From: a virus
Lineage: Duplodnaviria > Heunggongvirae > Uroviricota > Caudoviricetes
DNA: 10,142 bases
Reading direction: 5' to 3' (one strand)
IMG/VR virus record: IMGVR_UViG_2671180673_000014
The translations under genes and the position numbers were made by a program. This document shows positions 6,589 through 8,039 of the stretch, one piece after another. Each line of letters starts with the position of its first letter. The stretch's first letter is position 1. The notes beneath the pieces were generated by a model. It did no database searches. It worked only from the letters and a program-made list of their open reading frames with translations, and had not been told where the DNA came from.

Positions 6589-7093
6589 ACAGGCTCGTGA
6601 GGCTCTGGATGCCTGGATATGTCGACCAGGAATGACACAGGAGCAGGCGACGATATTAATCACTGAAGCATTCTGGGCTTTGAAAGAGCGCCCGAACATC
6701 GATGTTCAGCGTGTCACATATGAAGGTGGCGCGATTGATCAGCGAGCGCTTGGCGTTAATCGAGTGAAGATATTTGAACGCTGGAAGGCTATCGACACCA
6801 GGGATAAGCGTGAAAAGTTCACGGCGCTAGTGCCTGCAATTATGGAGGCTATCCGGATTAATGATTTCAGGTTGTATCGTGAAATTACTGACGGAAAAAG
6901 CATCACGTGCATGATCGCCGGGTTAAACAAAGAATATGGCGATGTGGTGGAGTCCGGACTGCTTTTTGCTGATCCTGCCGTAGTGGATCGTGAAACTGAC
7001 GAACTTATAGAAAAAGCAATTGCTTTCAAACTTGCGTATCGACAGCAATACCAACAAAAAGCTGGATGGAATTATGAGCCTTCTTTTTGCTGA
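6572..7093 (+). CDS. YdaT-like protein, putative CII functional analogue (173 aa)
   Basis: Position immediately after the Cro-like gene, overlapping the dicC 3' end by 17 bp. The segment DKREKFTALVPAIMEAIRINDFRL resembles the corresponding motif of Rac YdaT as I recall it. The family assignment is tentative. Confidence 0.5.
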   Translation: MKITPEQAREALDAWICRPGMTQEQATILITEAFWALKERPNIDVQRVTYEGGAIDQRALGVNRVKIFERWKAIDTRDKREKFTALVPAIMEAIRINDFRLYREITDGKSITCMIAGLNKEYGDVVESGLLFADPAVVDRETDELIEKAIAFKLAYRQQYQQKAGWNYEPSFC

Positions 7094-8039
7094 ACGCCCA
7101 CTGGTTATAAACACGCAGCTGGCAATGAAAATTGGCTTAAACGAAGCCATTGTTTTGCAACAACTGCACTACTGGTTGAGAGATACCAACTCCGGCATGG
7201 AATGTGATGGTGTTCGCTGGATTTATAACACAACGGAACAATGGCTGGAACAGTTCCCATTCTGGTCAGAGTCAACGTTAAAGCGCGCGTTTGCAAGTCT
7301 GAAAACGCTGGGGCTTTTGCGTTGTGAAAAGCTCAATAAATCAAAGCGCGATATGACCAATTTCTACACGATCAACTATGGGAGCGAGCTTTTAGATGGT
7401 GGCAAATTGAGCGAATCCATCGGTTCAAAATGCGCCGCTCCATCAGGTCAAAATGACACGATGGAAGAGGTCAAAATGAAACGCTCCATTGGTTCAAAAC
7501 GACCCAATGTCATCGGGTCAAAATGGCCTGATGATCTTACAGAGAATACAACAGAGATTACTACAGAGAATAAAAACACTTTTCGTCCGGAAGCTTCGCA
7601 ACCGGACCCGCAGACGACTGAACAGGATTTTTTAACCCGGAACTCCGACGCGGTTGTGTTTAGTGCGAAAAAACGCCAGTGGGGTAGCAGGGAGGATTTG
7701 GCGTGTGCGCAGTGGATCTGGGGGCGGATCGTGGGTCTCTACGAACAGGCAGCCAGTGATGATGGCGAGATCATGCGACCAAAAGAGCCTAACTGGACTG
7801 CCTGGGCCAATGACGTGCGCACAATGCGGATGCTGGATGGCAGAAGCCACAGACAAATTTGCGAAATGTTTGGTCGGGTTCAGCGAGATCCATTCTGGGT
7901 AAAAAACATCATGAGCCCGTCAAAGCTCCGCGAAAAATGGGACGAACTGGTCATCCGCCTGGGACGTTCACCTGTACAGCGTTGTGTTAATCATATTTCT
8001 GAACCGGATACAGAAATTCCGCCTGGTTTCAGAGGATAA
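7074..8039 (+). CDS. Phage replication initiator (O-like) with N-terminal winged-helix region, iteron-encoding linker and DnaT-like C-terminal domain (321 aa from ATG at 7074; the track ORF starts on TTG at 7020)
   Basis: The C-terminus SEPDTEIPPGFRG closely parallels the C-terminal tail of E. coli primosomal protein DnaT as I recall it ([13 protein letters not shown]). The N-terminal region is helix-rich (LAMKIGLNEAIVLQQLHYWL). Five direct repeats lie inside the gene. Confidence 0.75.
   Translation: MSLLFAERPLVINTQLAMKIGLNEAIVLQQLHYWLRDTNSGMECDGVRWIYNTTEQWLEQFPFWSESTLKRAFASLKTLGLLRCEKLNKSKRDMTNFYTINYGSELLDGGKLSESIGSKCAAPSGQNDTMEEVKMKRSIGSKRPNVIGSKWPDDLTENTTEITTENKNTFRPEASQPDPQTTEQDFLTRNSDAVVFSAKKRQWGSREDLACAQWIWGRIVGLYEQAASDDGEIMRPKEPNWTAWANDVRTMRMLDGRSHRQICEMFGRVQRDPFWVKNIMSPSKLREKWDELVIRLGRSPVQRCVNHISEPDTEIPPGFRG
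7416..7525 (+). repeat. Five direct repeats (iterons) at 23-24-bp periodicity, putative replication origin inside the initiator gene
   Basis: R1 7416-7432 tccatcggttcaaaatg; R2 7439-7455 tccatcaggtcaaaatg; R3 7462-7478 tggaagaggtcaaaatg; R4 7485-7501 tccattggttcaaaacg; R5 7509-7525 gtcatcgggtcaaaatg. Analogous to lambda ori iterons within gene O. Confidence 0.6.
7538..7578 (+). repeat. Three tandem ~12-bp A-rich repeats (ACAGAGA-A/T-TA) flanking the iterons
   Basis: tacagagaataca / acagagattact / acagagaataaaaaca, directly downstream of the iterons, where an A+T-rich unwinding region would be expected. They encode the repetitive linker TENTTEITTENKN. Confidence 0.4.

Follow-up and report, generated by a model that had tools for sequence, protein, structure and literature searches.

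How does a lambdoid replication module that encodes an initiator and no helicase loader bring the host helicase to its origin? This question is raised by a 10,142-nt stretch of Caudoviricetes DNA (IMG/VR record IMGVR_UViG_2671180673_000014; hereafter the window, at its full length), which is the left portion of a Qin-type (DicA/DicC/DicB/DicF) lambdoid prophage of Escherichia coli inserted beside rspB. Its replication initiator gene (Table 1) ends in a 20-residue peptide that resembles the C-terminus of the host replication restart protein DnaT. The initial annotation had taken this resemblance to suggest that the initiator recruits the host PriA/DnaT primosome, or mimics DnaT, in place of a helicase loader. 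We find that the same tail closes hundreds of otherwise dissimilar phage initiators and is coupled nearly perfectly, across phage genomes, to loaders of the DnaC type. The balance of probability tips modestly toward the tail being a docking motif for DnaC or the DnaB6-DnaC6 complex, with the DnaC of the host being used in this prophage.

The resemblance to DnaT is confined to the tail. In a pairwise BLASTP alignment (E 9e-8), the last 20 residues of the initiator match DnaT residues 160–179 without gaps, with 14/20 identities and 18/20 positives, and both peptides sit at the extreme C-terminus of their proteins, so the parallel first noticed there is real. The tail positions that differ from DnaT are those that vary across the motif family described below. 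The tail hardly varies among the chromosomal dnaT genes of 76 Enterobacteriaceae species, in which its consensus is [KR]RD[VIL]N..SEPD..IP[PR]GFRG. Broader searches returned the same short segment: the DnaT chains 2ru8, 6aep, and 9zbt in the PDB (labeled 'Primosomal protein 1' or 'Replication restart protein DnaT') match query residues 301–321 only, with E values of 0.013–0.044 against 177,635 sequences, and the NCBIfam DnaT model NF002770 was matched at positions 160–179 alone (16.2 bits against a cut-off of 201; E 0.006). The similarity is not due to chance. Outside the tail, BLASTP found no similarity to DnaT, including its N-terminal oligomerization domain and its acidic PriB-binding linker. 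The Pfam model PF17948, which describes the three-helix-bundle C-terminal domain (CTD) of DnaT that binds single-stranded DNA (ssDNA), likewise found no match in the window protein, whereas it does match DnaT itself and some phage initiators. Homology of residues 200–300 to the DnaT CTD is ruled out by the lack of a PF17948 match, by the restriction of the BLASTP alignment to the tail, and by a profile of the C-domain that recovers none of the DnaT chains in the PDB. Where residues 200–321 had been expected to align with DnaT, only 302–321 do. Mimicry of DnaT thus holds for the tail alone and fails for the rest of the protein, which has no DnaT CTD, linker, or N-terminal domain.

The window protein falls in the lambda-O-like initiator class, from which it departs in its N-domain and in the lack of a P gene, and it does not belong to the DnaT family. 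The open reading frame (ORF; ATG at 7074, TAA at 8037–8039) corresponds to RefSeq WP_000054512, labeled 'phage replication protein O' or 'hypothetical protein', and it is 100% identical in Escherichia phage PhiR42_1. The profile phrog_391 ('replication initiation O-like') covers it end to end (E 1.1e-91, residues 17–321 against profile positions 11–298 of 298), and the C-terminal, P-interacting domain of lambda O aligns with residues 170–294 at 36% identity (tblastn E 2e-16; 3e-22 in a second search), which bears out the earlier designation as a phage initiator. An AlphaFold2 model places a winged helix at residues 10–100, a disordered linker at 109–177, a helical domain at 183–295, and a disordered tail from 296. 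The predicted local distance difference test (pLDDT) score is 63–85 over the helix/strand pattern of the winged helix and 28–39 over the tail; as the input alignment was shallow (14 sequences at ≥70% identity; mean pLDDT 55), the model serves for domain boundaries and disorder only. No Pfam family matched the window protein, including Phage_rep_O, whereas lambda O itself is recognized by this family (PF04492) at 6e-36. The N-domain is a winged-helix family different from Phage_rep_O, and it is common to thousands of phage initiators. The initiator family is otherwise ordinary and very common in prophages, and some members are already annotated as 'primosomal protein I'; the C-domain alignment used as a locus query recovered near-identical Qin-type loci only.

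The layout of the gene also follows that of lambda O. Both genes lie after cro/cII-like genes, encode a disordered linker, and contain iterons and an A/T-rich tract within the coding sequence; the lambda ori likewise lies inside the O gene. In the window, the iterons encode the repeated SIGSK/SGQN/VIGSK peptide of the linker, and the repetitive linker segment (SIGSK/SGQN/VIGSK...TENTTEITTEN) spans 7402–7575, including the A-rich repeats (GC 0.40, AT skew +0.3). The differences from lambda O are the N-domain, the C-terminal end, which reads ...LDLTNTDWIYGVDL in lambda O and is of the DnaT type here, and the gene that follows. Queries with lambda P, DnaC, and phage DnaC (tblastn) found nothing in the window, in agreement with the earlier statement that no P/DnaC-like gene comes after the initiator. 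The next ORF, for which the lack of a Walker motif had also been correctly reported, encodes a DUF977/LygF-type protein and is not a loader.

The type of tail tracks the type of loader encoded downstream. The motif [KRQ]-R-[DC]-[VIL]-N-x-[VIL]-S-x-P-D-x-x-I-P-x-G-F-R-G-COOH terminates hundreds of phage initiators; a degenerate DNA pattern for IPxGFRG plus TAA retrieved at least 120 loci from viral contigs, and nearly all of the matches listed are the ends of 200–400-aa ORFs with the full 20-residue motif. Among these matches, a DnaC ortholog starts 2–6 nt past the stop codon in 40 of 114 loci, five of which carry members of the window's own initiator family. The orthologs, assigned by BLAST and with GTGKN as their Walker-A motif, are 48–51% identical to E. 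coli DnaC over the full length. The other listed loci contain no loader and no helicase, and lambda P occurs in none of them; their next genes encode DUF977/LygF, PerC, RuvC-like, DUF1064, Dam, ParB-HTH, or small winged-helix proteins, with the DUF977/LygF gene following the loaderless initiators in most cases. Sampling from the loader side gave 80 viral DnaC-ortholog loci; an upstream ORF was present in all but one, and the resulting 79 include one chromosomal dnaT-dnaC pair. The upstream gene ends in a PD..IP.GF[RKTV]G-type tail in 76 of these 79 loci (63 with [ILVMT]PxGF[RKS]G and 13 with close variants, such as PD..IPDGFTG) and in a different sequence in three. In contrast, none of the 70 lambda-P-type loaders with an upstream ORF stands behind a DnaT-type tail, and 67 of them are preceded by a ...LDxxNTDW[IA]xG[VL].. 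tail, as at the end of lambda O. Fisher's test gives p 2e-39 for this contrast, although the loci are phylogenetically non-independent and form ~15 versus 6 initiator-body clusters. Either tail type is found on the same lambda-O-like C-domain, so that it is the tail and not the domain that tracks the loader. Tail swapping is illustrated by the initiator P0136, which has a lambda-type tail and whose 75%-identical relatives have the GFRG tail and PerC; a search with P0140, also an O-like initiator, recovered three loci. The chromosomal dnaC begins 2 nt past dnaT, an arrangement that the phage cassettes share. The proposal that the tail replaces a loader is contradicted by these loci, since close relatives of the window initiator and unrelated tail-bearing initiators have a DnaC ortholog immediately downstream.

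Because the tail precedes nearly all of the sampled DnaC orthologs and none of the P-type loaders, DnaC or DnaB-DnaC is the indicated partner. The tail might instead bind host DnaB directly, with the DnaC orthologs merely traveling along. Modules with and without a phage DnaC both finally need host DnaB, and contact of DnaT with DnaB/DnaC is a long-standing proposal, with the subunit not known (PMC5778457, PMC4132743). However, the lambda-P-type modules target host DnaB too and none of the 70 uses the tail, which indicates that the tail tracks the loader type and not the helicase, and we regard direct binding to DnaB as unlikely.

If DnaC or DnaB-DnaC is the partner, the tail could serve a single recruitment step with two sources of loader. 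The N-terminal winged helix would bind the five iterons within the initiator's own gene, and the disordered C-terminal peptide would act as a short linear docking motif for a DnaC-type loader, either DnaC or DnaB6-DnaC6. In phages with their own DnaC ortholog, the tail would recruit the phage DnaC; in this prophage, where no loader is encoded, it would bring the host DnaB-DnaC straight to the origin, a step equivalent to the one that DnaT would perform at restart forks. In the isolated phage Evi, whose initiator bears the tail, no loader is annotated across the ~4 kb of replication region inspected on either side, which makes supply by the host plausible. Intact-looking Salmonella and Citrobacter prophages with relatives of the initiator (68–70%) have no loader gene either. 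On the DnaC side, the A84Y substitution (dnaC1331) specifically blocks PriA/PriB/DnaT-dependent loading (PMC11087952). Residue A84 is invariant in five phage orthologs aligned with E. coli DnaC, all of which sit behind tail-bearing initiators, and the region around it is a candidate docking site.

The tail behaves as a portable module. At least five unrelated C-domains precede it, namely the DnaT CTD (PF17948, up to 63% identical to DnaT 86–179) and those of the lambda-O-C, Evi/PhiR5_2, YdaU, and Phg_2220_C types, and the N-domains of tail-bearing initiators vary as well (DUF1376, HTH_36, Phage_rep_O, and the window type). One such protein is Rac YdaU of E. coli K-12, which ends in LRQVNTVSLPDSAIPPGFRG. 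The YdaU-YdaV pair and the 'O'-DnaC pair of PhiR5_2 belong, like the window initiator, to lambdoid replication modules with this tail type. Their bodies differ from that of the window protein, with DUF1376 in YdaU and 24–27% overall identity in the Evi and PhiR5_2 proteins; YdaU and the PhiR5_2 'O' have a DnaC ortholog at +6 nt, and the window has none. PhiR5_2 and the window have 19 tail residues in common (RCVNHISEPDTEIPPGFRG), and 6 of their 20 tail codons differ silently. The window and Evi proteins are 24% identical outside the tail, and DNA-level homology starts exactly at the first tail codon; this junction is a mosaic boundary typical of lambdoid modules.

Such portability also bears on whether the tail works within the initiator, by oligomerization or by cooperative ssDNA binding at the unwound origin. 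For DnaT, residues 84–153 bind ssDNA more weakly and less cooperatively than residues 84–179 (PMC4132743), and DnaT 1–161 was reported to be a dimer, not a trimer (PMC5778457). A role that depends on the fold is hard to square with a peptide borne by so many unrelated C-domains; the peptide is acidic and proline-rich, and the specificity for loader type would be left unexplained. We therefore consider a self-acting tail rather unlikely.

Conservation of the tail mainly as DNA, through translation coupling of the next gene or as a recombination joint and with no protein function, is hardly credible. The sequence TTC AGG GGG TAA closes the tail in 38 of the 40 DnaC-linked loci (8028–8039 in the window), in which AGG GGG within the FRG codons forms a Shine-Dalgarno sequence 2–6 nt before dnaC. 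Rare AGR arginine codons dominate, also in chromosomal dnaT, and the mosaic junction falls exactly at the tail start. However, the 162 distinct tail-coding sequences use six serine codons from both the TCN and AGY families, four proline codons, and six arginine codons, and the twenty residues are kept through this abundant synonymous change. The tail is also retained where the next gene lies 40–120 nt away with its own Shine-Dalgarno sequence, and loaderless loci keep the arginine with CGN codons. As far as codon usage can tell, the tail is maintained at the protein level.

Published work on DnaT leaves its tail without an assigned contact. The tail forms the highly flexible last 20 residues in the nuclear magnetic resonance structure (PMC5778457). 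In the 2026 preprimosome structures, the globular CTD of DnaT touches PriA, the acidic linker touches PriB, and a CTD filament touches ssDNA (PMC13377028). No contact of the tail is described alongside these, which may leave it available to a different partner, and the same work states that the handover from the PriA/PriB/DnaT preprimosome to DnaB-DnaC is unknown (PMC13377028). These structures also bear on the suggestion of the initial annotation that the restart primosome, PriA/PriB(/DnaT), is brought to the phage origin, where it would load DnaB. The tail is indeed that of DnaT, and phiX174-type replication uses the PriA primosome (PMC5778457). However, the DnaT elements that contact PriA and PriB, the CTD and the linker (PMC13377028), are both absent from the window protein, which deprives this proposal of its support, and the tight coupling to DnaC orthologs specifically would remain unexplained. 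We consider recruitment of the restart primosome very unlikely.

Several observations weigh against docking of the tail to DnaC. All of the support for it is comparative and consists of genomic association. No direct DnaT-DnaC interaction is documented despite the shared operon (PMC5778457, PMC11087952), and those who solved the preprimosome structures prefer DnaT's N-terminal domain as the recruiter of DnaB/DnaC (PMC13377028). Loss of DnaT residues 154–179 lowers the affinity and cooperativity of ssDNA binding, with the Kd rising from 9.9 to 27 µM and the Hill coefficient falling from 2.7 to 2.1 (PMC4132743); the tail may thus serve DNA binding instead. Since the last codons form the dnaC Shine-Dalgarno sequence, the conservation of 'RG' may be partly at the nucleic-acid level, and since the tail-coding DNA abuts dnaC, some co-inheritance is to be expected. 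The lambda-P-like DopE is the partner of DopC, a protein with a DnaT-C-like region (PMC5509034). Finally, the Qin prophage is defective, so the copy of the initiator gene in the window may be idle.

The DopC case is the one earlier report of a DnaT-C-like end on an O-like protein (PMC5509034). DopC and DopE are lambda O/P-like proteins of Cellvibrionales and Oceanospirillales that have been domesticated as a pair (PMC5509034). Like the window protein, DopC has an O-like N-terminal helix-turn-helix (HTH), and its DnaT-C-like C-terminus replaces the lambda O C-domain. It differs in being chromosomal and paired with a P-like protein, and its similarity to DnaT was an HHpred match to 2ru8 (PMC5509034), which may stem from the helical domain and not from the tail. 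In the literature covered, which includes older primary papers only thinly so that a prior mention is possible, we found no description of a function for the tail. Nor did we find it treated there as a module of its own, or find its almost exclusive association with DnaC orthologs or the complementary association of the NTDW tail with P described.

DnaT and the window protein both end in the same flexible or disordered motif at the extreme C-terminus. DnaT is an adaptor of fork restart with dnaC as the next gene, whereas the window protein is an origin-specific initiator with no dnaC after it. The C-terminal tip of SSB (DDDIPF-COOH) is a replisome peptide that recruits proteins. Like this tip, the tail is disordered, acidic, and C-terminal, has an I-P...F core, and would act as a docking handle; the sequences differ, the aromatic residue of the tail lies short of the C-terminus, and the two are not known to share a partner. 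The likeness would be a functional analogy and not homology. Nothing was found to support SSB-tip mimicry, clamp binding, or a degron function for the tail.

A broader reading is possible, though we would place it somewhat short of an even chance. The tail would be the part of DnaT, so far missing, that recruits DnaB-DnaC, and it would serve enterobacterial phage initiators at large as a 'DnaC handle'; the C-terminal peptides would constitute a loader code, the dnaT-dnaC pair would be a domesticated phage cassette, and loaderless initiators would plug into host DnaC. In such a code, ...PDxxIPxGFRG would specify DnaC-type loaders and ...LDxxNTDWxxG.. lambda-P-type loaders, with HWNSAEAWENTL and QFIxEDF as further classes. 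The NTDW-type tail of O-like initiators was in every case followed by a P-type loader. Other conserved C-terminal peptides do occur on O-like initiators, namely ...GHWNSAEAWENTL and ...QFI[SP]EDF, the latter standing before a DnaC ortholog in two loci (L392 and L449), and they suggest a wider code that links tail peptides to partners. The whole C-terminal half of DnaT, PF17948 plus tail, is present in some phage initiators at 45–63% identity to DnaT 85–179, in some cases with a DnaC ortholog at +2 nt. Comparison of these cassettes with the chromosomal dnaT-dnaC pair suggests shared ancestry.

The phage data recast the question of how DnaT reaches DnaB/DnaC. The flexible tail is the only part of DnaT common to many otherwise unrelated initiators, and those are coupled to DnaC orthologs almost one-to-one; an open problem of restart thereby becomes one of peptide binding and tail deletion. 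Docking to DnaC, if true, would explain helicase loading by the common lambdoid replication modules of the 'initiator-only' kind, and a loaderless prophage initiator could compete with DnaT for host DnaC. The data also suggest that lambdoid phages set their loader specificity through exchangeable C-terminal peptides, and they offer a concrete scenario for a phage origin of dnaT-dnaC.

Table 1. Features of the window discussed in the text (positions are those of the 10,142-nt stretch)
Feature	Position	Strand	Basis and remarks
Replication initiator gene, 321 aa, lambda-O-type architecture	7074–8039	+	PHROG 391; RefSeq CDS with the same coordinates
N-terminal winged-helix domain, aa 1 to ~108, presumed iteron-binding	7074–7397	+	AlphaFold2 model
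Five direct repeats (iterons), 23–24-bp spacing, core CATCnGGTCAAAATG	7402–7533		Repeat search; presumed origin
Three 12-nt A-rich repeats (TACAGAGAATAMAA)	7538–7575		Adjoin the iterons; candidate unwinding region
C-terminal helical domain, aa 170–296, homologous to the lambda O C-terminal domain	7581–7961	+	tblastn to lambda O
DnaT-type C-terminal tail, 20 residues, QRCVNHISEPDTEIPPGFRG, aa 302–321	7977–8036	+	Match to DnaT 160–179; predicted disordered
835-aa ORF	1659–4166	-	Related records: '3'-5' exonuclease' or 'exodeoxyribonuclease VIII'
DicF antisense RNA	4774–4825	-	Rfam RF00039, 76.7 bits; expected for a Qin-type prophage
DicA (cI-like repressor)	5867–6274	-	Pfam HTH_3 and Phage_CI_repr; RefSeq dicA; divergent from the replication operon
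DicC (Cro-like)	6358–6588	+	Pfam P22_Cro; RefSeq dicC; opens the rightward operon that includes the initiator
YdaT/cII-like gene	6572–7093	+	Pfam YdaT_toxin, E 4.5e-5; PHROG 163 'CII-like'; 20-nt overlap with the initiator start
DUF977/LygF-type small winged-helix protein	8080–8502	+	Pfam DUF977, E 5e-29; PHROG 142 'Ren-like exclusion protein'; lambda ren position
SAM-dependent DNA methyltransferase, truncated	8499–8855	+	118 aa, positions 52–165 of a 229-position PHROG profile
IS3-type transposase fragment	9909–10106	-	Beyond the decayed sequence after the methyltransferase

The surroundings of the initiator are those of a widespread prophage. Several complete E. coli chromosomes are 100% identical to the window, and 327 of 5,426 complete genomes carry most of a 3.2-kb query. 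The gene order runs from integrase, excisionase, and a large exonuclease through ydfD/dicB, the DicF RNA, ydfABC, and dicA to dicC, the YdaT/cII-like gene, the initiator, the DUF977/LygF gene, the truncated SAM methyltransferase, and finally decayed sequence that includes an IS fragment. Rightward of the replication module, the prophage is degraded. The middle part of the 835-aa ORF product is long, acidic, and of low complexity. The window holds six single N bases (4596, 4632, 4644, 4750, 4926, and 4947), the first five of which break ORF translations around DicF.

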